This document shows, piece after piece, positions 9,054-46,915 of a stretch of DNA of 64,000 bases. The notes beneath the pieces are model-generated. The model saw nothing but the letters and a program-made list of their open reading frames with translations. It searched no databases and was not told the DNA's origin. This DNA is from Alphaproteobacteria bacterium (GTDB taxonomy: Bacteria; Pseudomonadota; Alphaproteobacteria; MPNO01; UBA830). Both the position numbers and the translations under genes were made by a program. Position 1 is the first letter of the stretch; each line of letters begins with the position of its first letter. Location: the NCBI GenBank assembly GCA_964291215.2, contig OZ219791.1, forward strand, positions 2,400,001 to 2,464,000. The letters run 5' to 3'.

Positions 9054-10488
9054 TGCCGACGGTGAACGGGGCATCGCTGCGCGCGGAACTCGATGACGCG
9101 AAGGCCCGGATCACCACGCTGCGCGCGGACGGCAAGGTGTCCGAAGAGGTCGACGCCGTGATCGGGGTCCTGCTGCCGGGCATCCTGGTGGCGGTGTTCC
9201 TCGAGAAGGCCACGCCGAAGACCTCGCGCAACTCCGGCCTCCCGCCGTCGCAGACGGACCAGACCGCGCGGCGCGCCGGCAAAGGCTCCCGCGGCAAGGG
9301 ACCGAAGGCGAGGGAGACGGCATCGGGCAACCTGCGCACGGTCACCGTCATCGGATCCAGCCCGGTCACCGAGTGCCGGCAATGCGGCCATGACCTGTCC
9401 GCAACCGTGTGCGCCGGACACGAGGAGCGTGTCGAGATCGACATCGTCTTCGAGACCGTCGAGCGCCGGGTCGAGGCCGAGATCAAGGACTGCCCGCGCT
9501 GCCGCGCCCGGAACAAGGGCGCGTTCCCCGACACCATGCCGGGGCCGCTCCAGTATGGACCCGGCATCGTTGCCTATGCCGTGCACCTGCTCTGCGCGCA
9601 GATGGTCCCGCTCAAGCGCACCGCAGCCATGATCCGGGCGATGACCGGACGGCTGCTCTCCGAGGCCACGCTTCTCGGCTTCGTCTCGCGCCTGCATCAG
9701 GCGCTGGAACCATGGGAGGCCGCCGCGACCGGGAAGCTCCTCGCCATGCCCGTGCTGAACGTCGACGAAACCTCGCTGCGGGTGGACGGAAAGAACCACT
9801 GGATCCACGTCTGCTCCGGCGGACAGGTCACCGTCAAGCGGCTGCACCGCAAGCGCGGATGCGAGGCCATCGACGACATCGGCATCATCCCACGCTACCC
9901 AGGCGTCATCGTCCACGACTGCTGGAACTCACCTACGCACACTGCAAGCATCAGCTGTGCGGCGCCCATCTGTTGCGCGAGCTTCAGGCCGTGACCGACA
10001 GCAACGGCTGGCCGTGGGCGCAGAGAATGCGCAGGCTTATCGCGCGCCGGCAGGTCATGCGACGGCCGGACAGGCGCCTCTCCATGCGCCAGTACAGGCG
10101 AATCGCACGATGCTACAGGGAGATCCTGGAGCAGGGCCGAAAGGAAATGCCCGAGATCCCGAAAAGAGAAAAAGGCCGCCGGGGACCGGTCGCCAAGTCC
10201 GATGCCCACAACCTTCTCGAACGCCTCGCCGCCCAGAGACGGAACGTCCTGCGCTTCTCAAGGCGGGCCGACACACCGTTCTTCAACAATCGCGCTGAAC
10301 GAGACTTCCGGATGGCCAAGGTCAAGCAGAAGGTCTCCGGCTGCTTCCGAACCATCGCCTGCGCAAACGCCTGGTGCCGCATATCAAGCTACATCCGGAA
10401 AATGGCGGCACTCGGATACAACCCGCTCGTCGCCATTAACATCGCACTGCAGGAAAAGGCCGTCGAATGTCTCAATCAACTCGAATGA
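9053..10488 (+). pseudogene. tnpC: IS66 (ISBst12-like single-ORF) DDE transposase, frameshift near 9925
   Basis: TSRNSGLPPS, CxxC zinc finger, YGPGI, VDETSLRV, VHDCW, HQLCGAHLLREL, FNNRAERDFRMAKVKQKVSGCFR. Confidence 0.92.
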
Positions 10489-11143: not shown

Positions 11144-11301
11144 AGGGATGGCAGCGATGCCGCCCGGCGATTTTCTTCGATCATACGCCAGGCGCGGCGT
11201 GCCCCCCCTTGCGTCCTCCTAGCTACTCAAGTATATGATTCTATGCAGGAAATACCCTACCGGTGCCGTTTGACATGGCCCAATTACCGGCCCAAAACCT
11301 T

Positions 11302-11711
11302 CATTGCCGGGCGGGTCGGCCACCCCGTATCATGAAAACAGGTGCCGGCCGCGCGGGCGGGACTTCGGGCTTTTACGGGGTTGCCTACCGGTCACGGTCC
11401 GCAAGACGGGCACCGAAGATGGCGAGTATCGGACGCCTCGGGAGCAGTGCTCTGGCGGGGAGGGGTTTTTGTGCGCCCGATCCCCAACAATTTTCACGGC
11501 AAACGTCCATTGCCGGGCGGGTCGGCCACCCCGTATCATGAAAACAGGTGCCGGCCGCGCGGGCGGGACTTCGGGCTTTTACGGGGTTGCCTACCGGTCA
11601 CGGTCCGCAAGACGGGCGCCGCAGATGGCGAGTATCGGACGCCTCGGGAGCAGTGCTTTGGCGGGGAGTGATTTTTGTGCGCCCGATCCCCAACAATTTT
11701 CACGGCAAACG
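11302..11711. repeat. 206-bp repeat, tandem copies 2 and 3
   Basis: CATTGCCGGG at 11302 and 11508 (period 206); same unit as 1356-1564. Confidence 0.92.
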
Positions 11712-15518: not shown

Positions 15519-17222
15519 TTGCAACAGTGTCGGCGGAGGACGCCGACGAGAGACAGGAGAACCGAGACCCTTCGCTGTGCGCTTTACGCCCGCTATTCGT
15601 CCGACCAGCAGCGGCCGGCCTCCATCGAGGACCAGTTCCGGGTCTGCCGCGAGCACGCGGAGCGCGAGGGCTGGAAGATCGTCGGCACGTACAGGGACTC
15701 CGCCATCTCGGGAGACAGCGTGATCCTCCGGCCCGGCGTCCAGGCGCTTCTGGAGGACGCGCGGCGGGGCGCGTTCGAGACCGTCGTCGCCCTCGACCGG
15801 ATCAGCCGCGACCAGGCCGATGTTGCGACCCTCTACAAGCATCTGCGCTTCGCCGGCGTGACGATCTTCACGCTCGCGGCGGGCGAAGGCGAGATCAACG
15901 AGCTTCACGTCGGCCTCAAGGGGACCATGAACGCGCTCTTCCTGAAGGACCTCGCGGCGAAGACGCACCGGGGGCTCCGGGGCCGCGTCGAGGCCGGCAA
16001 GTCGGGTGGCGGCATCTGCTACGGCTACGATGTGGTGAAGCTGCACGACGAGGCCGGCGAGCGCATCCGGGGCGAGCGGGAGATCAACGAGGCCGAGGCG
16101 GAGATCGTCCGGCGCATCTTCCGCGAGTTCGCCGCCGGCGCCAGCCCGCGCGCCATCGCGCGGCGCCTCAACGACGAGGGCATCCCCGGCGCCAAGGGCA
16201 GGCTCTGGAGCGACTCCGTCCTGCGCGGCCACGCCAGGCGCGGCACCGGGCTGCTCAACAACGAGCTCTATATCGGCCGGCTGGTGTGGAACCGCCAGCG
16301 CTTCCTGAAGAACCCGGACACCGGCAAGCGGGTCGCGCGCGTCAACCCGCCCGAGGAATGGATAATCGCCGAGGTTCCGGAGCTCCGCATCGTCGACGAC
16401 GCGCTGTGGCAGGACGCCAAGACCCGGCAGGGAGAGCTTGCCGAGAAATACGCCATCGCGGCGACGCGGAACGCCCACGCCAACCCCATGAACGCCGCCC
16501 ACCGGCCGCGTTACCTGCTCTCCGGGCTGCTCGAATGCGGCGTCTGCGGCGGCCCCTATTCCATGCGCGGACAGGGCCGCTACGGCTGCTCTAACCACGT
16601 CATGACGGGCTCGTGCGCCAACAGCCATCCGGCGCGTCGAGATCGAGGAGCGGGTGCTGGCGGGGCTGAAGGACAAGCTGATGGAGCCCGAGGCCGCCGC
16701 CGAAGCGATGAAAGCGTATGCCGAGGAGACCAACCGGCTCAACCGCGAGCGTCGGGCGCGAGCGACCGCGCGGAGCTGGCCGGGATCGAGAAGAAAATCG
16801 CGTCGATGCTCGACGCCATTGAGGAGGGTGGCTACGTGCGGGGTATGTCCGACCGGCTCCGCGAGCTGGAGGCCCGCCAGGACGAGATCAACGAACGGCT
16901 GTCAGCCGCTCCGGTCGACATCCCGGACGTTCACCCCAACATTGCCGGCGTCTACCGCCGCAAGGTGGAGCGACTCGCGGAGGCGCTGGCCGATCCCCGC
17001 GACCAGGCGGCGGAAGCCATAAGGGGGCTGATCGAGCGGATCGTGCTGACCCCCGGCGCGAAGCATGGCGAGTTGCACGCCGCGCTCCATGGCGACCTCG
17101 GCACCATCCTCGAATGGGCCGGGAGCGGCAGGGCGAAGGGAGCGACCGACATCCTGCGAGGCAGAATGTCGGTCTCGGTGGTAGCGGGGGCAGGATTTGA
17201 ACCTGCAACCTTTAGGTTATGA
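15519..17222 (+). CDS. Large serine recombinase/integrase (compensating frameshifts about 16630-16760; true start probably near 15570)
   Basis: ALYARYSS catalytic Ser, ALDRISRD, recombinase domain NELYIG, zinc ribbon CGVCGG...YGC; a homolog-like segment sits in the alternative frame 16654-16760. Confidence 0.9.
   Translation: MQQCRRRTPTRDRRTETLRCALYARYSSDQQRPASIEDQFRVCREHAEREGWKIVGTYRDSAISGDSVILRPGVQALLEDARRGAFETVVALDRISRDQADVATLYKHLRFAGVTIFTLAAGEGEINELHVGLKGTMNALFLKDLAAKTHRGLRGRVEAGKSGGGICYGYDVVKLHDEAGERIRGEREINEAEAEIVRRIFREFAAGASPRAIARRLNDEGIPGAKGRLWSDSVLRGHARRGTGLLNNELYIGRLVWNRQRFLKNPDTGKRVARVNPPEEWIIAEVPELRIVDDALWQDAKTRQGELAEKYAIAATRNAHANPMNAAHRPRYLLSGLLECGVCGGPYSMRGQGRYGCSNHVMTGSCANSHPARRDRGAGAGGAEGQADGARGRRRSDESVCRGDQPAQPRASGASDRAELAGIEKKIASMLDAIEEGGYVRGMSDRLRELEARQDEINERLSAAPVDIPDVHPNIAGVYRRKVERLAEALADPRDQAAEAIRGLIERIVLTPGAKHGELHAALHGDLGTILEWAGSGRAKGATDILRGRMSVSVVAGAGFEPATFRL
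17179..17222 (-). other. att site: 3' half of tRNA-fMet(CAT)
   Basis: Reverse complement TCATAACCTAAAGGTTGCAGGTTCAAATCCTGCCCCCGCTACCA has the anticodon loop, T-arm and CCA; the 5' half is absent. Confidence 0.85.
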
Positions 17223-20910: not shown

Positions 20911-21353
20911 CTTCTTCACCGCCCGCTGCACGGTCGCGCGGCTCACGCCGAACCCCGTCTGCACCCAAGTTGCACTTTTTGCGGTCTGGAATTTTTATCA
21001 CGTTGCGCGATTTTTTTGTCGGCCGATTTCAACATGGCACTACATCCTGTTGAATTCTGTCAGGTTGTGAGGCGGCTCCTCGTGCGGCGGGTTCGACACC
21101 AGCCGCCGAGGAGATTTCGGCGACCTCGGCGGTGCGTGTCCTGTCGGTTGACGATCAATGTGCGCAGGCGCGTGGTGACCTTGGTTCCGCATGCTCTCGC
21201 GGATTGATGTCCGGCACTTGTCGATGCCCCGCGCGGGGATCAGATGCACCGCGGCGAGCACGGCGATCAACAGGTGGGCGGCGATGCGATGGCCGGGCGC
21301 AATCCGGGCTCGGATTTCAATGAACGGAAGGTGGCCTCGATATCCGTGTCCCG

Positions 21354-22771
21354 AGCATCCATGTTTCCTGGCAAGGTTTTTGCGGGTGTCTGCGGTGATG
21401 TTTTCTGTGGTTGTCCACAAGCGGTGTGGGATTTGCCCTGCGAGCGAGGCGACATGAAGCTTGTGGTCCCGGCGGCGGGTTGCCGTCCATTGGTCACGTG
21501 AACGCGGCTACCTTGCCGCCCCCGGGCACGTGACCGTCCGGGTTCCAGGTGTCCCAAGGCGGTTCGATCTCCTCGATGTCGGCCTCGACGATGATCTGCA
21601 GACATTCTCCCCAAGTCGTGTCGTAGTAGGGAGACTGTCGATACAGTCCCGATCGCGCTCTCGGCAGGGGTGAGGGCCGTGTCTCCTTCGCTCACTCACC
21701 GGTGCTTCGGTCGACCAGCAACGCTGCTGTCGCAGCAAGGTGTTCGCCAGAGCTTGCGCATCACGGCGACAATGGCGACTTTGTGGGCCTTGCCGGCGGT
21801 CTTGTGGCGTTCGAACACCAGATCCGCGTTGAAGCGTGCTGCCGAGGTCGCGGCCAGGAGATCACGTGGCCTCCGGCGCCCGCCTCGGATATGCCGAGCA
21901 CCGTGGCCACTGTCGTTGGCCATCGGCGCCACCCCGATCAAGGCTGCCGACGCTGCCGAGTTCGGGCATCCAACAAAGAAGGGCTGCGGCGGTCACTGGA
22001 CCGGGGATCGAGGTCAGGGTACCTCTGCTCGGGATCACCGGCGATCACCGCTTTGATCGCCGCGCCGGCAATGCGGTCATCGAGATCGGCCGCCGAAGCC
22101 CTTGTGACGGTCTCGCCATCCACCTCATCTGCCACTTGCCTCAACTTGGTCCGCACGTCGACAAGCGCGGCGCCAGGAGATCCCCCAGGCAGTTGAGGAA
22201 GGCTTCCTGAGGAGCCACAGGCTCGAGATCGCACCGTGCCGATCTTGGCGTCAACGCGGTTGGCCAGATGGCCCAAAGCCTCGGCGAAGCCCTCAACGGG
22301 CAGGACAACCTCGAAGCCCCGGTCATGAAGACACTGGTGAACCTTGCGGTGATAGCGGCCTGTCGCCCACCACACGGGTTACCTCGAGGCTGCGAAGCCA
22401 CGTGCCCGTGGCGTCGTTCGTAAAACGACGCCCCAGATGTCCAGACTGGCCTTGCTGACCCCTGCTACTACCTTAACCATCGTCCCTTGTTCCTCGCCTT
22501 ATGATGATACGGTTCAAACCCAAGCATCCATTCAGGACGCAAGGGACGCCAAAGGAGGTTGCCACGCTCGGGAACGGCTCTATAAAGCCAAGGACGGAAC
22601 GGCAACCTCCGCGGAGATCGTTTGATCCCCGCTCCCCTGTACGTTCTCACACAGGGGAGCGGAATCTCTTTGCAACCATAGCTCTCCCATAGTCGAGGTT
22701 ATCCACATTTTCCCGCCCCCAACTGCTGTGGATGATTTCATCATCAAGGGGACAAAACCTAGTCATATAAG
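21354..22771 (-). mobile_element. IS110-family element (recombinase pseudogene 21696-22480)
   Basis: MVKVVAG..SKASLDI, ATGRYH, NRVDAK and GVAPMANDSG...RHIRGGR...KVAIVAVMRKL; bounded by a duplicated 2-bp core (plus-strand AG at 21354-21355 and 22770-22771); removing it restores IS1634 sequence. Confidence 0.88.
22481..22665 (-). ncRNA. Predicted IS110 bridge RNA
   Basis: 5' hairpin (22629-22662), target loop closed by GGAGGTTGCC/GGCAACCTCC (22554-22610) and donor loop closed by CGTCCCTTG/CAAGGGACG (22481-22548); loop strands match the target flanks and element ends. Confidence 0.8.
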
Positions 22772-24157
22772 GACGGTCTCGATATCCCGGTCGCTGGTGC
22801 GCAGGCGCCCGCGTTGTCTTGTCGTCTGTGGCAGAAGCGCACGGCCGTTGCCCGGCCTTCTCGACGGTGATCTCGTAGTGCCGGGCGACGGTGGAGAAGC
22901 GCTGCTCGATACCGCTCTCCGACACCTTGTCGTGGCGCCGGCCCTTGGAGGTGGAGCTTTGCCGCCTCGAAGCCCTGCGGTCAGGAATGGCGTCCTCGGC
23001 CCTCTTACTGCTCTCCACGCCGCGCCATCCTCGCTGGCAAGGCGCCTGCACCTCGTGGTCGGTGATCAGCCTCGGGCCCACCATCGGGCGGCGCCGCCCG
23101 CGATCCAGCCGTGCTCGCCACGCGATGTTCGCCTCGGTACCGGCGTCCATGACTACCGTCGGCTTCGCCGCCCGCCTCCAGCCTCAGCAGCGCATCCGTG
23201 CCCGGCCACGTTGCCCCGCAAGACCTCGCAACTGCGCCGAAAGCCCACACCGTCGAGCGCAAGCGTGGGGCAATCATTGCGCTTCGAGCGCCCGAAGCGG
23301 GGGAGCTTGCCGTCGGCGCGGCCGTGAACAGGTCGTAAAAGGCGATGGTGTCGGGGATGCAGCGCGCGCTCGCGGTTGAACAGCTCTTTCCGGATGGCGG
23401 CCCGGTGACGCAGGTCGCCGATGCGGTACGGCGTCTTGCGCGACTTGCCCTCCAGATCCGGAAGCTCCGCGCTGTCATCGCGCAGCCAGCGCTCGCTGGC
23501 GGATCATCCTGGCGACAATCAGCGCACTCGCGATGCCGAGGTCGTGAAGCCGAGATCGCGCCTCAAGGCACAGGCAGCCGACCGAGCGCGGGTGCTCGAG
23601 GCTGTCGAGGTTGACGGTCGCAATTTGCGTGCGTCTTCCTCCAGAGCGTCGGCGCGGAACCTCCGGGCCCCTGTTGACGATGTCCTCGGCTGCGGCCTGC
23701 ACGCGGCTTCGAACAGCGGCGGGTGGCCAGCGCTTCAGCGGCAACCTCCTTCCAGTTCTTGCGCGCCACCGAATGGTCGGTACCGAAGCAGGGTGCGCTG
23801 CCTGACCTTGTCGCCGATGCGTTGAGAAAGTACGAGCCGGTGGACGGGTTTGTCGTCTGCGGTGCTGCGGGTTTTGGTTGCCCTGATGAACATGTTGTCT
23901 GGAGCCTTTCGTGTTGACGAGGCCCCGGATATACCGGGTTTGGCGGCGGGGCGAATCGGCAATATCCCGGCACTACATTGGCCATCCCGGACAGGAAATC
24001 ACAAATATAGTAGGTAATGTCACAAAAATGCCAACATATAGCATATCGAGCGAGTCTGCCGTATAAATTTTGGCTTCAACTGACGCAAAAAATGCCAACT
24101 TGGGGTAAGATTATCCTGCTGTGGAATCAGATCCGGGCGTAGTGGCCCGCGGCGAAA

Positions 24158-39736: not shown

Positions 39737-41726
39737 GAAGGGTCGGTTTTGCTTGTTCAGGATGATTCGCATTTTCGCTGGCTTTTTGTGAAGCGGCCTA
39801 GTATCCGTTGTCGTGATGGAAGGGGCAGCGGATTTTTTTGAGACGACTCCGGAGGGTTTTGAGCTCCGGGATGTGGTTGTGCGCCTTGCGCGGCCTGATG
39901 TCGCTGGAACCGTGTTGTTGACCGTATCTTGGTTTCAAGCAGTTTGCCGGTCGAGGTCTGCGTGTTCACCTGGCGCGGGCGGTGGATTGGTGCTGCGGGC
40001 TGGCAGACGGGCGCCCTCAGCTGCGCACCCGTTGGATTGACTGGCGCCGCGAGGAACAGTTCAGGCGATTGCACCTGATCGGGAACAACACGAGGTTTGT
40101 TGTTCTTGGTGGTCGCCGGGTGTTTCCGAGCCTTGCCTCGTTTGCGTTGTCGCGGATGGTGCGGCGTCTCGGTGGCGACTGGGAGGCTGCGTACGGCCAT
40201 CCGTTGCTTGTTGCGGAGTCGTTTGTCTCGCCGACGAAGTTCAGCGGCACCATGTACAAGGCGGCGAACTGGGAGTGCGTTGGCAGGAGCTATGCGCGCG
40301 CCAGCGGGCGCTATACCGACCGGCACGGGGAGGCGAAGGATCTTTACGTTTTTCCGCTGCGTCGCGATGCCTGTCGTCGGCTGCGGGATCGTTCACCGCT
40401 TCCTGTGGCGTGGGAGTTGCGGGCGCCGCAGAGCGACTTGTCGGCGCAGGAGTTGCGCTCGATTTATCAGCATTTTGCGGCGCTTTCCGACTTCCGGCGC
40501 GCGCAGGGGCGCAAGCACCGCATCGCCTCGGTGCTGTGCGTGATTTTGCTGGCGCGACTTGCGAACCGGCACGGTGCGGTTGCGGCGGCGCACTACGCGA
40601 AGACGATGACGCAGAAGGAGCTGGAGCAGCATGGAAGAACAGGGGCACCGGCAAGCCGGTCTCCAAATCGACCGTGCACCGGGTGCTGCAGAACACCGAC
40701 CCGGGATGGATCGAGGATGCTCTGCGGCGCGCAGCCGCGCCTGGAGGTCGGCAACGCGATCGCGGTCGACGGCAAGCGCATCCGCGGCGCCAACCGCACC
40801 GGCGAGGATCATTACGAGACGGTCTCGCTGGCACGGGACCGGTATGCCGGTTTCGATCCTCAACTATCACGACGGGGAGATCGCTGCCGTCCACGCCGCG
40901 CTCGAGACGGCACCGGTTGCCGGCCGTCTGCTCACCCTCGACGCGCTCCACACCACCCGCGAGGCTGATCATCGAGACCCATCGCGCGGACTGGATGATG
41001 ATGGTCAAGGGCAACGCGCCCGAGACCTTCGAGACCTTCGAGAGCATCAACTGGAAGACCGCCAGTACGGGACGCTACAACGAAAAGCCCGCGCATGGCC
41101 GCATCGAACAGCGCACCATCGAGGTCTTCACCCCGCTGGCGAAGATGATCAACTAGTCAAGTAGATCTTCCGCGTCACCCGGCGCGTCGAATTCAAGAAA
41201 TCCGGAAAACGGACAACCGAATACGCCTACGGCATGACCTCGGTCAAGCGCGCCTCGCCGCAACAGCTGCTCGCATGGAATCGTGGACACTGGGTAGTCG
41301 AGAGCCACCATCATGTCCGCGATGCCACCTTCCGCGAAGACGACTCCATGCTCCGAACGCGCCCGCAAACAACGCGATCATCAACACCCTCGCAATCGCC
41401 GTCATCATCCGCAACAAACGCAAGCTGCCCAAACCCTTCAACAGCTTCGTCGACGCCCGCCACCACTATGCCAACAAGCGCAAGCAGGTCCTGCACGCAA
41501 TCACAAGACCAGGCTGACCGCGCCTCTCTTCCCGACAGAAACTGCAAGCTTTCAAGCCCGGCAACCAAGGCCTCTCGCTCGCCCCGGATACGCCGACCAA
41601 TCGCGCCCCGCGCCGTAACAGCGCGTCAGACGTCAGCAAATCTCAAAATCGCAGCCTCGAACGCGTCGACCCGCGCCACGATCAGGACTCCGATCACATC
41701 ACATCAACAAGCATGGGATCACCTTG
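39737..41726 (+). mobile_element. Decayed ISAs1-family element with N-terminal DUF4338 (DruA-like) domain
   Basis: LIGNNTRF...ESFV...GTMYKAANW then DFRRAQGRKH, IAVDGKRIRG, LDALHT, VKGN, HGRIEQR, RGHWVVES, RDATFRED; weak TIR. Confidence 0.8.
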
Positions 41727-43694
41727 GGGTGGGGCCTGATGCTCGATCGCCAGAGCGGCGGCAAGGTGGGTGTCCGTCGTCAGGTTGCCGGCAGCGCCAA
41801 CTGCTTCACCCAAGTTGGCACTTTTCGCGGCCTGGAATTTTTATCGCGTTGCGCGATTTTTTGTCGGCCGATTTCAACATGGCACTACATCCTGTTGAAT
41901 TCTGTCAGCTTGTGAGGCGGCTCCTCGTGCGGCGGGTTCGACACCAGCCGCCGAGGAGATTTCGGCGACCTCGGCGGTCGGGCGCGTGTCCTGTCGGTTG
42001 ACGATCAATGCGCCTGGCGCAGGCGCGTGGTGACCCTGATCCAGCTCCGCATGCTCTCGCGGATCGATGTCCAGCACTTGTCGATGCCCCGCGCGGCCAG
42101 CGGATCAGATGCACCGCGTGGAGCACGGCGATCAACAGGTGGGAGGTGATGCGCTGGTCGAGCTGGATCGGGCGCAATCCGAGCTCGGATTTCAATGAAC
42201 GGAAGGTGGCCTCGATATCCGTGATCCGCCAATATGCCCCGAGGACGGTCTCGATATCCCGGTCGCTGGTGCGCAGTACACAGGCGCCCGCGTTGTCTTG
42301 TCGTCTGTGGCTGAAGCGCACGGCAGTTGCGTTGGCGCCGGCCTTCTCGACGGTGATCTCGTAGTGCTGGGCGACGGTGGAGAAACGCTGCTCGAGACCG
42401 CTCTCCAGCACCTTGTCGTAGCGCTTGAGCCGGCCCTTGGCCGAGAGGCCGTCGTGGAGCTTTGCCGCCTCGAAGCTGTGCCGCCTGCGGTCAGGAATGT
42501 CGTCCTCGGCCCTCTTCCTGCTCTCGCTGACCACGTAGAGCCTCGCCTCGCCATCCTCGCTGGCAAGGCGCCAAGCCTGCACCTCGTGGTTGGTGCTGGT
42601 GATCAGCAGGGCCTCGGGCTCACCCTCGGGCGGCGCCGGCCTGGCGCCGCGGCTGACCGCGATCCAGCCGTAGCCGTGCTCGCCACGCGATGTTCGCCTC
42701 GGTGGCGATGCCGGCGTCCATGACTACCGTCGGCTTCGCCGCCGGGCCCGCCTCCAGCCTCGACAGCGCATCACCCAGCGTGTCCGGTTCGCTCACGTTG
42801 CCCGGCAAGACCTCGCAACTGCGCGGAAAGCCCGCGCCGCGCCAGCGCAAGCGTGGGGCAATCATTGCGCTTCTGCTTCGAGCGCCCGAAGCGGGGGAGC
42901 TTGCCGTCGGCGCGGCCGTGAACATTGGTGAGATCGTAAAAGGCGATGGTGTCGGGGATGTCGAGCAGCGCGCGCTCGCGGTTGAACAGTTCTTTCTGGA
43001 TGGCGGCCCGGTGACGCAGGTCGCCGATGCGGTACAGTGTCTTGCGCGCCTTGCCCTCCAGATCCAGAAGCTCCGCGGCCGCGCTGTCATCGCGCAGCCA
43101 GCGCTCGCGCTCGCTGGCCGGATGAATCATCCTGGCGACGATCAACGCACTCGCGATACGCCCTTCGCGGCCCGTGATGCCGAGGTCGTGGAGGATATCG
43201 GCGAAGCCGAGATCGCGGAGCGCCTCGAAGCACAGGCGCTCGCAGCCGACCGAGCGCGGGTTCTCGAGACTGTCGAGGTTGACGGTCGCAATTTGCGTGC
43301 GTCTTCCTCCAGAGCGTCGGCGCGGAACCTCCGGGCCCTGAGCTTGTTGACGATGTCCTCGGCTGCGGCCTGCACGCGGCTTCGAACAGCGGCGGGTGGC
43401 CGTGGAGCAGCGCTTCGGCGAGCGCGGCAACCTCCTTCCAGTTCTTGCGCGCCACCGGATAGTCGGTACCGAGATTGAGCAGCGTGCGCTGCCTGACCTT
43501 GTCGCCGATGCGCTGAGAAAGCACGAGCCGGTAGCTGTCGACGGGTTTGCCGTCTGCGGTGCTGTGGGTTTTGGTTGCCCTGATGAACATGTTGGCTGGA
43601 GGCTTTTGTGTTGACGAGGCTCCGAATATACCGGGTTTGGCGGCGGGGCGAATCGGCAATATTCTGGCACCACAGCGGCCATCCCGGACAGGAA

Positions 43695-44979
43695 GCGGAA
43701 TCATTGGATTGAAGGGTATGGTGACTTCAGTTTCATCCGGGCGTTTGCGGTGGTGAAGCGCCAATCCGCCGGCCGCATTGCGGCGCTCGACCCACGCCAC
43801 GGTCTCCCGCAGTATGGTGTCGCGGTCGGGAATGCGTCGTCGAAGGCTCTGCCGCGACAGCGCACCGATCTCGATTTCGGCCATGTTGAGCCAACTTCCG
43901 TGCTTCGGCGTATAGCGAAACTCGAACCGCACCCGCATCGCCTCCTTGAGAGGAAAGGATTCGTACAAGGATGCGGGACCGTGCGTGTTCAGGTTGTCCA
44001 GTACGATCTTCTTGCCGGGAAAATGGTCATCCGCGAGTTCCCGGATGAACTGTGCCCGGTCCCGGGCCGTGTGACGGTCGGTGACTTTCACCGTGCGCCA
44101 GTTTTGGTTCGGCGCGAAAGCCAGGAAGAGGTTAGCCGTGCCGTCATACTCGTAATCGACGATTTGCCTGGGGGACGGGGAAGGCGGGTTTCCTTCGTCT
44201 GCTGTCGGCTGGTCTCGCAAACCAGAACCTCGTCTTCGACAAAGTCATGTTGACAGATGTTTAGCACCTCCTCCATGGCCGCCACGAACGGCGCATTTCG
44301 GCTCGGTGGAATGCACCAATACTGCTTCAACCACCGCTTGATCTCTTTTTTTCAGTGTTTTCCGTACCGTTTCCTTTGAAATGCTCTCGACGATCTCCAT
44401 CTCCACCAGACGACCAGCCAGCAGCTTCAGCGTCCACAGCCCTCGGGCAGAGAAGAGCGAGCCAGGGCGACCGGTTTCGCCTCCTTCGCCCCGTCCGGAA
44501 GCTTCGGCCGGCGGTTCTCCTGTTCCCGGCGGCGGAGGGCGGCCTCCAGAACGCAGCGCAGGCACTCGACTGTCGAGGCGCCGATGCCCGGACTACGCGC
44601 AATGTCGACATCCCGGAGCTTGCCGCCGTCGCGCCCCTCGTCCGCCATCAGCAGAATCTGCGCCCGACGGCTCCGGTACCGTCGACGATCGCCCGCAGCT
44701 CCCGGCGCCGAAAGTGTCACTCGACAGAGCTTCCTGCCCTGAGAGTTGGCCATGATCCGCTCCGATCCCTGTGCCGAACACCTGCAGGCAGGCTCGGTTC
44801 CCGGGGATCGGATCCGTCCCGATCCTCAGAAGAGCGCGGGTGCCTGTACCTTCGGCATCAGGTCTGTGGGGATGAACAAGCAAGATCCGTACCGAACGGG
44901 TGCGCACGGGTGCCGGCACGGACCGACACGGAAATCCTGCCAGAATACTGTCGTCAATTCAACATTTCCGCACTACTAG
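43695..44979 (-). mobile_element. IS630-family element (decayed)
   Basis: RRAQILL, WTLKLLA, SKETVRKTLKK with a poly-A slippery site near 44345, DYEY, VLDNLNTH, YTPKHGSWLNMAEIE; imperfect TIR GCGGAA...TTG.ATTGA. Confidence 0.85.
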
Positions 44980-45179
44980 TGTTGTGTCCCGCAAATACCA
45001 GCAGATAATCGTTCAAGCCTGTCGAAGATTGCGTCTGCGGTTGCGACTCACACGAAAGGGGATGTGGATTTTCGGTGGGTACCAGAGGGGAAGTTGGCGG
45101 CCGCGGAGCATATCGAAAGGCCTCCTATTGCGAGAAAGACCGAGAATATATCATACTTATTTATGGGACACTACACTAG
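44976..45179. mobile_element. MITE of about 200 bp with CTAG at both ends
   Basis: TIR TAGTGTTGTGTCCCGCAAAT vs TAGTGTAGTGTCCCATAAAT; no coding capacity. Confidence 0.75.
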
Positions 45180-45204
45180 GCAATGTCACAAAAATGCCAA
45201 CATA

Positions 45205-46771
45205 GTAACTGCTCACCCCCTGGTTCCGGCTTGATGTCGGGGTAGAGCAACGAACGGGTTTTCGTGGAGATTTGACACTGCATGCCGATTCGCTTAGTGG
45301 TGGTCATCGAGAACGACGGGGACCGCCAGTGGGCTACTTTGGATCGAAGGCGACGAGCGGGCTGTGCCAGCTGCTTCCGGGGCTCCAGCCTCCGCATGAT
45401 CTGTATGTGGAAACGCATCTCGGAGGCGGCGCGCTGATGAAGCGCAAGGCCGGGTGATGGCGACGGGCGGCGCGCGAGGAGTTCGAAGCGGCCAAGACCG
45501 CGGCGCTGCCGGCAAGGTGGCGGAAGAGGCCGTGATCCGCGTCCTCGTCATCCTGCTCGACATCATCATCGTCGTCCTTCTGGAGAAGACTACGCACGAG
45601 CCGGAACTCCGGTCTGCCGCCGTCACAGACGGACAAGAGCGTGCCGGAAGCAACGGCCCGAAGCCGAACCGGCAGATGGGCGACAACCTGCCATCGTCGA
45701 GGAAACGGTCGCGGCCTGCGACGCCTGCGGCGCTGACATCGACGGCCCCGTCGATCGGGAGCGCCGCACGACATCGTGTTCGAGGTCGTCGAGCGCCGCG
45801 CCGAGATCAAGGAATGCCCGAAGTGCAAGGCCCGGACCAAGGGCCGGTTCCCCGACAACATCCCGTGCAGTACGGCATCGGCATCCAAGCCCTCGTCATC
45901 AACCTGCTGGTCGCCCAGATGCTGTCCCTGCGCCGTGCCGTCGCGCTCGTGCAGGCGATCTCCGGCATCAAGCTCTCCGAGGCAACCTGCCTCAGCTATG
46001 CTTTCACGATGCGCTCGCGTCATGGGAGGAGGCTGCCGTGGCGCACCTCCTGCAACGCCCGATGTCGACGATTTCGGATCAACAGTAAGTGGCTCCATGT
46101 CGTGGGACCCTGACGTGCAAGTTCCCGCACCGCAAGCGCGGCCGAGAGGCAAGAGATCGGCATCATCCCGTGCTACAGGGGCGTCCTGGTCCACGACTGC
46201 TGGGCCTCGTACATGGGCCAGTGTAGCCACCAGCTGTGCGGCAGCCACCTGCTGCGCGAACTGACCTTTGTCGTCGAGGCTACCGCTGGGCGCGACTGAT
46301 GAAGAGCCTGCTCCGCGAGGTCTGCCACAAGGTCAACAAGAGCGCATCCAAGACCCTGAACGACGCCGGGCCGTGCGCAAGCGCTACCGCACCATCCTCA
46401 CGCAGGGCGCTAGGGAACTGCCCGATATCCCGCCGCCGCCGAAAGGAAAACGCATAGCAAAGTCCGACGCGCACAACCTGCACGAACGTCTCGTGAAACA
46501 CGAAAAGTCAGTCCTGCGCTTCACAGACGACCCCAACGTCAGCTTCACCAACAATGCCGGAGAACAGAAGATCAGGATGGCAAAGGTCAAGCTCAAGGTG
46601 TCCGGATGCTTCCGCTCCACGCAAAAGCATGGTGCCAAGCTACCTCACCTCCATGGCCGCACTTGGCTACAATCATCACGTCGCCACCCAGATCGCCCTC
46701 GACGGAAAAGCCGCAGACATCATCAACGAGCACTACGACCAATCAGAACCCAACTAGGGGTGAGTAGATAC
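45205..46771 (+). mobile_element. Second IS66-family element with a methyltransferase remnant (45329-45457) and decayed transposase
   Basis: TIR GTAACTGCTCACCCC / GGGGTGAGTAGATAC; 8-bp TSD CCAACATA (45197-45204 / 46772-46779); GYFGSKATSGLCQ...YVETHLGGGALMKRKA then TGATG into TnpC motifs. Confidence 0.88.
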
Positions 46772-46915
46772 CCAACATATAGTATATCGAGTGAGATTGC
46801 TGCATAAATTTTGCCTTCAACTGACGCAAAAAGTGCCAACTTGGGTTCAAGGAGAGCGAACAGAATGTCCGTGTGGCGGTCTTCCGGGTGGGTGCGCCAG
46901 GCTAACTGGTAGTAA

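Follow-up and report, generated by a model that had tools for sequence, protein, structure and literature searches.

Was the IS110 element that interrupts a transposase gene in this stretch of an alphaproteobacterial chromosome directed there by its own bridge RNA, and did its relatives in the same genome choose their sites in the same way? The locus lies in a 64,000-nucleotide stretch (the window; contig OZ219791.1, positions 2,400,001 to 2,464,000), and all positions given below use the window numbering. The genome from which the window was taken is called G000, and the target guide of the focal IS110 copy is called guide A. It appears that the focal copy is a dead insertion sequence (IS) of the IS621 type, and that its family multiplied by inserting, under the direction of the guide, at a 12-base site of an IS1634-like element, filling nearly all of the copies that match the guide. 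We put the probability of this reading at roughly 0.8.

The element and its junctions were delimited as follows.

21354..22771, minus strand: IS110 element, 1418 bp with both CT cores counted in, from alignment to an intact element of another genome (locus L025; 1300/1417 bases identical)
22770..22778, minus strand: left target GACCGTC and left core CT, a junction identical in 11/11 IS1634-site copies with an intact left end
21349..21355, minus strand: right core CT and right target CGGGA, present in 14/14 IS1634-site copies

On the minus strand the junctions read GACCGTC (22778-22772), CT (22771-22770 and again 21355-21354) and then CGGGA. The duplication of the CT core at both ends, as claimed in the first-pass annotation made from the sequence alone, is borne out; the element end placed at 22778 was corrected to 22771, the bases 22772-22778 being the left target. 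A dinucleotide core is found at each end and a single one in the empty site, in line with membership of the IS110 family. The predicted identity is also supported by a fragment match to NF033542 (IS110; E 2.6e-7) in the focal copy and by the L025 relative (92% nucleotide identity), which encodes an intact 315-aa protein with PF01548 and PF02371; a Pfam scan of the focal open reading frame (ORF) pieces gave no match. The non-coding left end comprises the 291 nt upstream of the ATG at 22480, and a short CAT/ATG subterminal repeat surrounds the junction, with no long terminal repeats. The right end, too, is extensive, with about 345 nt in the focal copy and about 700 nt in L025. The IS1111 group, in which the RNA lies downstream of the gene and the subterminal repeats measure 7-17 bp, was ruled out, as the guides lie upstream here.

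For the 190 nt before the ATG, the predicted fold consists of a 5' hairpin followed by the target and donor loops (z = -5.43) and is better than that of any of 200 shuffled sequences. The IS621 order of these parts, with the recombinase ATG at 22480 following the donor loop, had been proposed from the letters and is upheld by folding. No Rfam family was found in the window at the gathering threshold. The parts of the predicted RNA are:

22629..22662, minus strand: 5' hairpin, from folding and homolog comparison
22554..22610, minus strand: target-binding loop, its stem arms shortened by 6 and 5 nt relative to homologs of other genomes
22591..22599, minus strand: left target guide (LTG) TTCCGTCCT, varying with the flanks across copies and homologs
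22567..22574, minus strand: right target guide (RTG) TTCCCGAG, from guide-flank comparison over copies and homologs
22481..22548, minus strand: donor-binding loop with the left donor guide (LDG) at 22531-22523 and the right donor guide (RDG) at 22507-22498, from folding and covariation

The LTG (22599-22591) agrees with the left flank at 7/9 positions, both mismatches being the two 5' positions, and the RTG, read as TCCCGAG (22573-22567), agrees with the right flank at 7/7. For the donor, the LDG ATGGATGCT matches at 9/9 and the RDG ATAAG at 5/5, the latter pairing being extended with a one-base bulge (TCATcATAAG against CTTATATGA). All four of these matches had been read from the sequence before and were found again. 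Across the homologs the scaffold is conserved and the guides are hypervariable, with two-sided changes in 6/32 predicted pairs; in 13 homolog rows the handshake base of the donor loop is G eight times and A five times, and 40/41 G000 copies have C at target position 7. The shortening of the focal target stem removes a motif that is invariant in six homologs, and the focal bridge RNA may therefore be impaired besides the recombinase. The two deletions still leave a perfect 10-bp stem.

The guides follow the flanks well beyond the focal copy. Eight distinct guide pairs, the focal one and seven from other genomes, were scored at 80 positions, of which 70 matched their own flanks; only one of the 40,320 possible pairings reached this score, namely the true one. 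In this test the L028 left guide was shifted upstream by one base, and for its right flank a separate right end (L066) of the same genome was used. A larger test of 13 rows gave 114/130, but its six G000 rows were hand-picked, so that our conclusion leans on the eight-row test. Within G000, where the copies are not independent, the right target matched at 5/5 positions in 36/58 copies (mean 14.7 and maximum 27 in 10,000 shuffles), and the last four bases of the left target matched in 25/41 (shuffle mean 7.9, maximum 18). The RDG tracks the left end of the element: 4/4 G000 copies starting with CTTGT have ACAAG and 16/16 copies with ATAAG start with CTTAT, the exception being two ACAAG copies that start with CTTAT. 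Between the G000 subfamilies the target loop differs, and the left donor guide is nearly constant. The RNA thus combines two internal loops with guides that covary with target and donor, as is expected of a bridge RNA, and the guide model put forward for the focal copy holds across copies and homologs.

Where, then, did the family insert? G000 contains 64 matches to the left end and 69 to the right end, and 62 copies were tabulated after removal of two split left ends. Repeated sites within five multicopy IS families account for 56/62 copies, in a genome where 23% of the sampled 21-mers have at least three occurrences. The families, named from representative empty alleles, are:

IS1634-like: 14 copies
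DruA-ISAs1 fusion: 17 copies, at three sites
second DruA-ISAs1 fusion: 19 copies
ISNCY: 2 copies
DruA + IS4 element: 4 copies, at two sites

Guide A is carried by 18 copies, 14 of which occupy the IS1634-like site, one a DruA-ISAs1 and one a DruA-IS4 element, and two lie elsewhere. The proposed enrichment in another multicopy IS is therefore found, but targeting is not confined to IS1634, since guide A is also found at four sites elsewhere, and sister guides lie in four further IS families. The first-pass annotation had suggested such a tabulation and named two contrary outcomes, copies with the same guides at non-matching sites or mostly outside IS1634; neither was encountered among the 62 copies.

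Several copies show irregular junctions. An otherwise empty target at G000:C2:3297487-3297910 holds CT-CATATGA-CT, a 9-base remnant similar to the left end of IS110, as would remain after loss of the element from an internal CT to the right core. The copy at G000:C2:3385611-3387052 combines the left flank of one DruA-ISAs1 site with the right flank of another, which suggests recombination between two copies. Elsewhere (e.g. G000:C2:178906, C2:686703 and C1:1705009) the first 8-9 bases of the left end are swapped for an unrelated repeat before CTAG, suggesting that other ISs inserted there, and in several copies at the site labelled T3 a short deletion has removed the left junction. The DruA (PF14236) elements are themselves multicopy (L002:289-2298, L003:224-1981 and L006:423-2436, with one copy near 41152-41553 of the window); some encode DruA and an ISAs1 transposase as a single fused ORF, and in others DruA adjoins an IS4 transposase. 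A literature search on DruA-transposase fusions returned nothing.

The recombinase gene of the focal copy has decayed, as had been noted before.

21700..22480 (end approximate), minus strand: DEDD recombinase pseudogene with 19 deletions, 9 of them frameshifting; the first catalytic Asp codon is lost

Intact relatives retain D-E-D-D and Ser, and a distant intact relative from genome G001 matches IS621 (E 4e-27) and ISCro4 (E 3e-25) in the PDB. In G000 the recombinase is destroyed in 57/57 full-length copies, which carry 12-26 deletions, 5-18 of them frameshifting and several in every copy. No intact copy of the focal family is present, the only two intact IS110 elements of the genome each being 24% identical. 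The 19 deletions are fixed or nearly so across 18/18 guide-A copies, including those at unrelated sites. Copies are mosaic: of the deletion pairs separated by more than 25 nt, 45-82% occur in all four combinations. Shared deletions together with such four-gamete violations point to gene conversion or to the spread of dead copies in trans. For the degraded IS record of Wolbachia, gene conversion is reportedly the subject of a 2009 paper by Cordaux. The donor loop is intact in 17/18 guide-A copies, as against damage in 30/33 copies of an older group. The three sequencing runs that hold the window also contain stretches of up to 255 nt that match the intact L025 element without differences; a sequence of the intact type is thus present in those communities, where it may belong to another organism.

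The host of the focal copy is present twice in the window.

20964..24104, minus strand: IS1634-like copy 1, between terminal inverted repeats, split by the IS110 element
41809..46845, minus strand: IS1634-like copy 2, its left end about 3 kb from the body and the intervening DNA including a DDE_3 transposase fragment
42237..42250, minus strand: empty site GACCGTC-CT-CGGGG in copy 2, with one mismatch to the right guide

Fragments of copy 2 match NF033559 with E values of 6e-15, 3e-13 and 2e-7, the frameshifts in the host gene keeping all three under the 100-bit cut-off, and the host transposase is 26% identical to that of an intact IS1634 (E 3e-6); 'IS1634-like' is therefore the safe name. Terminal inverted repeats are present. 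No matching duplication surrounds copy 1, and a 4-bp target duplication was seen by eye in one other IS1634-like copy. A plasmid search for a named host transposase yielded one unannotated match. The core CT falls within a Leu codon, ten codons before the Glu of what we take to be a Y-x2-R-x3-E-x6-K motif, in which this Glu is presumably catalytic. The insertion was first described as inactivating its host. It does split the transposase gene before the predicted catalytic Glu, yet empty IS1634-like copies are as eroded as occupied ones, and inactivation is therefore undated and only a possibility. An empty target allele had likewise been announced for copy 2: the site is indeed uninterrupted (core 42243-42242), but its CGGGG differs from the CGGGA of the guide at one base, so that the allele is not a perfect target. 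An IS66 piece and the DDE_3 fragment lie inside copy 2 (43087-44220 and 45330-46208).

The comparison of filled and empty alleles bears most directly on the question. Among 13 empty IS1634-like alleles only one is a perfect target; seven have CAGGA, three CCATC, one CGGGG and one CGGAA. When windows were slid along about 600 bp of host (9 occupied and 11 empty rows, four long-branch rows being left out), the 12-base target discriminated best, with 10/11 empty against 0/9 occupied rows, and the largest difference in a non-overlapping window was 5. At two other sites few exact targets remain among the empties (2/21 and 1/9). A one-base-off site in DruA-ISAs1 is intact and empty in 25/31 copies, and guide A occurs there once. 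Three perfect 12-mers in single-copy G000 DNA are all empty, which would be expected because insertions in host genes are probably purged. In eight occupied hosts the divergence of the host (5.8%) exceeds that of the IS110 element (2.2%), with no correlation between the two (Mantel r -0.11, p 0.65). On the host tree the filled and unfilled copies are intermingled, with 5 changes and 0% of 200 bootstrap trees showing a single one, on poorly resolved trees built from 19/27 rows. These sequence patterns favour, rather than prove, repeated insertion over the amplification of one event.

A number of observations weigh against guide-directed filling of the sites. The empty IS1634-like alleles represent only four mismatch types, the commonest of which may be ancestral instead of an escape change. 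At three further sites the 12-mer of the occupied site is intact in many empties (T2d 20/36, T5 7/12, T3 7/21). A single clade comprising all occupied hosts survives the approximately unbiased (AU) test (p 0.09). The right target shows a mismatch at one or more bases in 22/58 copies, one copy matching at only 1/5; two of the four guide-A copies outside IS1634 fit the left guide at 2/7 and 3/7, and among the homologs the left side is a poor fit in L026 and L031, as is the right side in L033. Finally, no activity, RNA or circle has been observed.

Could the 14 filled copies represent one guide-directed insertion, multiplied as a passenger by the host IS acting in trans or by gene conversion? The AU result leaves room for this, and the mosaic copies are what such copying might produce. 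However, filled and empty alleles are interspersed, host and IS110 do not co-diverge, and three right-flank deletion variants are found in both occupied and empty alleles. A single event moreover leaves unexplained the guide-site differences in 12/13 empty alleles and the guide-A copies at unrelated sites, which lie only 0.5-1.3% from the focal copy, and we consider it improbable. A related proposal, which can stand beside guide-directed insertion, is about the order of events: after an early death of the recombinase, the guide-A copies were moved in trans by an intact relative no longer in the assembly. This would fit the 19 deletions shared even by copies at unrelated sites, the donor loops and perfect 10-bp target stem kept by the guide-A copies next to the damaged older group, and the L025-identical pieces in the same three runs. 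Yet other IS families share their deletions likewise, so that conversion accounts for the sharing without activity in trans; G000 holds no intact family copy, and the L025-identical pieces perhaps stem from another community organism. Early death is thus rather unlikely, but by no means far-fetched.

The mosaics and deletions might also be blamed on the assembly or polishing of repeats, given the repetitiveness of the 21-mers and evidence that comes from contigs instead of raw reads. This is very improbable: independent contigs from three runs cross the focal deletions gap-free (e.g. 22523-22627 and 22175-22300), alignments of 134 host orthologs, 49,210 residues in total, contain just 6 gaps in the G000 sequence, the genome is 99.3% complete, and another genome holds four identical intact copies. 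Hardly more credible is the idea that the cell has domesticated the element as an RNA-guided defence that disables transposons. While 56/62 copies do lie inside other ISs and the targeted families, as far as examined, consist largely of dead elements, the recombinase is destroyed in every copy, insertion-free hosts are equally dead, and a selfish use of safe sites predicts the same pattern.

Guide-directed insertion, which we prefer, would have proceeded as in IS621. An excised circle would join the right and left ends and so create the promoter of the bridge RNA, for which two boxes are candidates.

21369..21374, minus strand: -35-like TTGCCA, 13 nt inside the core, read by eye
22762..22767, minus strand: candidate -10 hexamer TATGAC (4/6), without the last T, by eye

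The TTGCCA reported at the right end is present at 21374-21369, and it would be spaced 17 nt from TATGAC in the circular form only. Alphaproteobacteria tolerate -10 boxes of this kind, without the final T. A promoter scan of the linear element alone found 0 sites, and it demands the final T that TATGAC lacks. No tandem junction is present in G000 or among the joints listed for the assembled contigs, and contigs prove presence, not absence. In the RNA the target loop would read CCGTC-CT-CGGGA and the donor loop ATGGATG-CT-TAT, whereupon the DEDD/serine recombinase would recombine target and donor at CT. Copies would survive mainly in mobile elements, with selection removing insertions in host genes; point changes in the guides would have re-aimed the family several times in a stepwise manner, and mismatched host alleles would have been protected from insertion. 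Short deletions would later have eroded every copy and gene conversion partly homogenised them, and because of the latter the pairing of guide and site would be blurred in the older subfamily.

Some 120 homologs were among the matches listed. A scan with the donor-loop pattern detected nine loci in metagenome-assembled genome records of Alphaproteobacteria/Paracoccaceae and three metagenome loci of one insertion; a DNA match was found in 1/60 related genomes and a protein match at 1e-60 in 1/25 of the same family. The sequencing runs with window sequence comprise three contig sets, with no RNA run among those listed. The genome of L025 contains four identical intact copies, with a target loop unlike the focal one.

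L025:2807-4625, L029 and L030: intact sister IS110, its guide directed at a group II intron 5' end

These three copies lie seven bases inside the predicted 5' end of the intron, with the right guide matching at 9/9. The intron call is based on RF02005 in two of the three loci and a reverse transcriptase/maturase ORF, and we take the GUGYG start at these sites to mark the intron 5' end. The fourth copy sits in a dam-like gene, at a near-match site. Elements of other genomes lie within a rve/Mu transposase gene (L034) and within an IS6 transposase gene (G063); at L028:2639-4021 the G063 relative is itself interrupted, directly after the donor loop, by a different IS110. The 315-aa L025 protein, distant from IS621, is a candidate new bridge recombinase. 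It is tempting, though in our view doubtful, to see in all this a generalist hyperparasite of mobile DNA, re-aimed at least five times in one genome, with matching copies filled, recombinase-less guide cassettes moved in trans and an intact sister aimed at an intron.

Dense short deletions are a feature of more than the IS110 family. Relative to a less eroded reference, 18-23 deletions per kb are found in the IS110, IS1634-like and both DruA-ISAs1 families (examples are 21354-22771 and 41809-43700 in the window, and L002 and L003), and the ISNCY family, the reference of which is itself already eroded, carries 5 per kb. In four multicopy IS families the sizes are mostly 5-8 nt with a sharp peak at 5-7 nt, deletions of 1-4 nt being rare; low-copy repeats show 2.7 gaps per kb, and host genes are clean. 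Independent contigs also carry the deletions, which are widely shared among copies, more evenly spaced than random (coefficient of variation 0.77 against 1.0) and mildly enriched in microhomology. Deleted segments overlap polymorphic sites in 74%, against a background of 58%, which fits conversion and may also reflect alignment effects. No strong 4-mer motif was found at the deletions, the best being GCGC (64 against 40 expected, uncorrected p 3e-4). Cutting by NucS/EndoMS followed by Ku end-joining was rejected as a source, as neither family was found in G000.

MutS is intact in G000. Loops of five or more bases may escape MutS; a literature search on the loop-size limit of bacterial MutS returned nothing suitable. 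Such escape, followed by spread between copies through deletion-biased conversion, is our tentative explanation, held at somewhat less than even odds. The 5-7 nt deletions may represent a hitherto undescribed bacterial erosion of repeats, and are perhaps more novel than the IS110 finding.

The window further contains a large serine recombinase gene (15519-17222; Resolvase, Recombinase and zinc ribbon), IS66 pieces in two places, one of them at 9409-10488, and a 209-nt repeat in three copies, two in tandem (1356-1564 and 11294-11708).

Much of what is described here has a counterpart in known systems. For IS621-type elements the circle, the junction promoter, guide pairing and recombination at CT are established in the available sections of two papers (PMC11208160, PMC11208158). 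According to the same sections, IS621 and ISCro4 (IS622) share with the present family a long non-coding left end with 5' hairpin, target loop and donor loop, the CT core, LTG and LDG that read as the top strand with RTG and RDG complementary, a bulged RDG and a short subterminal repeat; the target of IS621 is there given as repetitive extragenic palindromic (REP) sequence, whereas here it is a transposase gene. The relatives found here encode, like IS621 and ISCro4, a DEDD + Ser recombinase, of 315 aa. The focal family differs from these two in being distant in sequence, in its many guide variants per genome and in having only dead local copies. Specific insertion of an IS110-family element into another mobile element is reportedly also seen in IS4321 and IS5075 (IS1111 group), which target the terminal repeats of Tn21; these have a downstream RNA, long subterminal repeats and a transposon end as target.

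As to decay, the Wolbachia IS fossils (PMC3205602) likewise comprise many dead, nested IS copies kept in one genome, and the available part of that account mentions no 5-7 nt deletion peak. Deletions in bacterial pseudogenes are described, in the section available, as having power-law sizes with a 3n bias (PMC6054270).

An IS110 aimed at another IS is not new. ISEc21, an IS110 with an upstream non-coding RNA (seekRNA), inserts in the catalytic region of other transposase genes, targeting the codons around the second Asp (DDE) of IS3 transposases, and natural redirection has been described for ISMch6 and ISXne4 (PMC11187229, in its available part). ISEc21 belongs to a cluster of 345-385 aa proteins for which its authors, in that part, give no core duplication (PMC11187229), whereas the relatives here are about 315 aa with a CT core. 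Unlike those of ISEc21, the targets here are IS1634-like, ISAs1, IS4, ISNCY, IS6, rve/Mu and a group II intron. A literature search found no report of an IS110 guided to IS1634 or group II introns, the supplementary target tables of PMC11208160 and PMC11187229 lying outside its scope. Flexible recognition of half-matches is reported in the available part of a preprint (10.64898/2026.08.14.744561). One scaffold here bears several guide-site pairs, and the counts of filled and empty alleles offer natural data on mismatch tolerance. A second preprint is said to report flexible half-match recognition as well. In comparison with these systems the mechanism is known and the targeting of one IS by another is published; what this family adds is the unusually rich natural record in a single genome, which gives a direct view of bridge RNAs changing their target.

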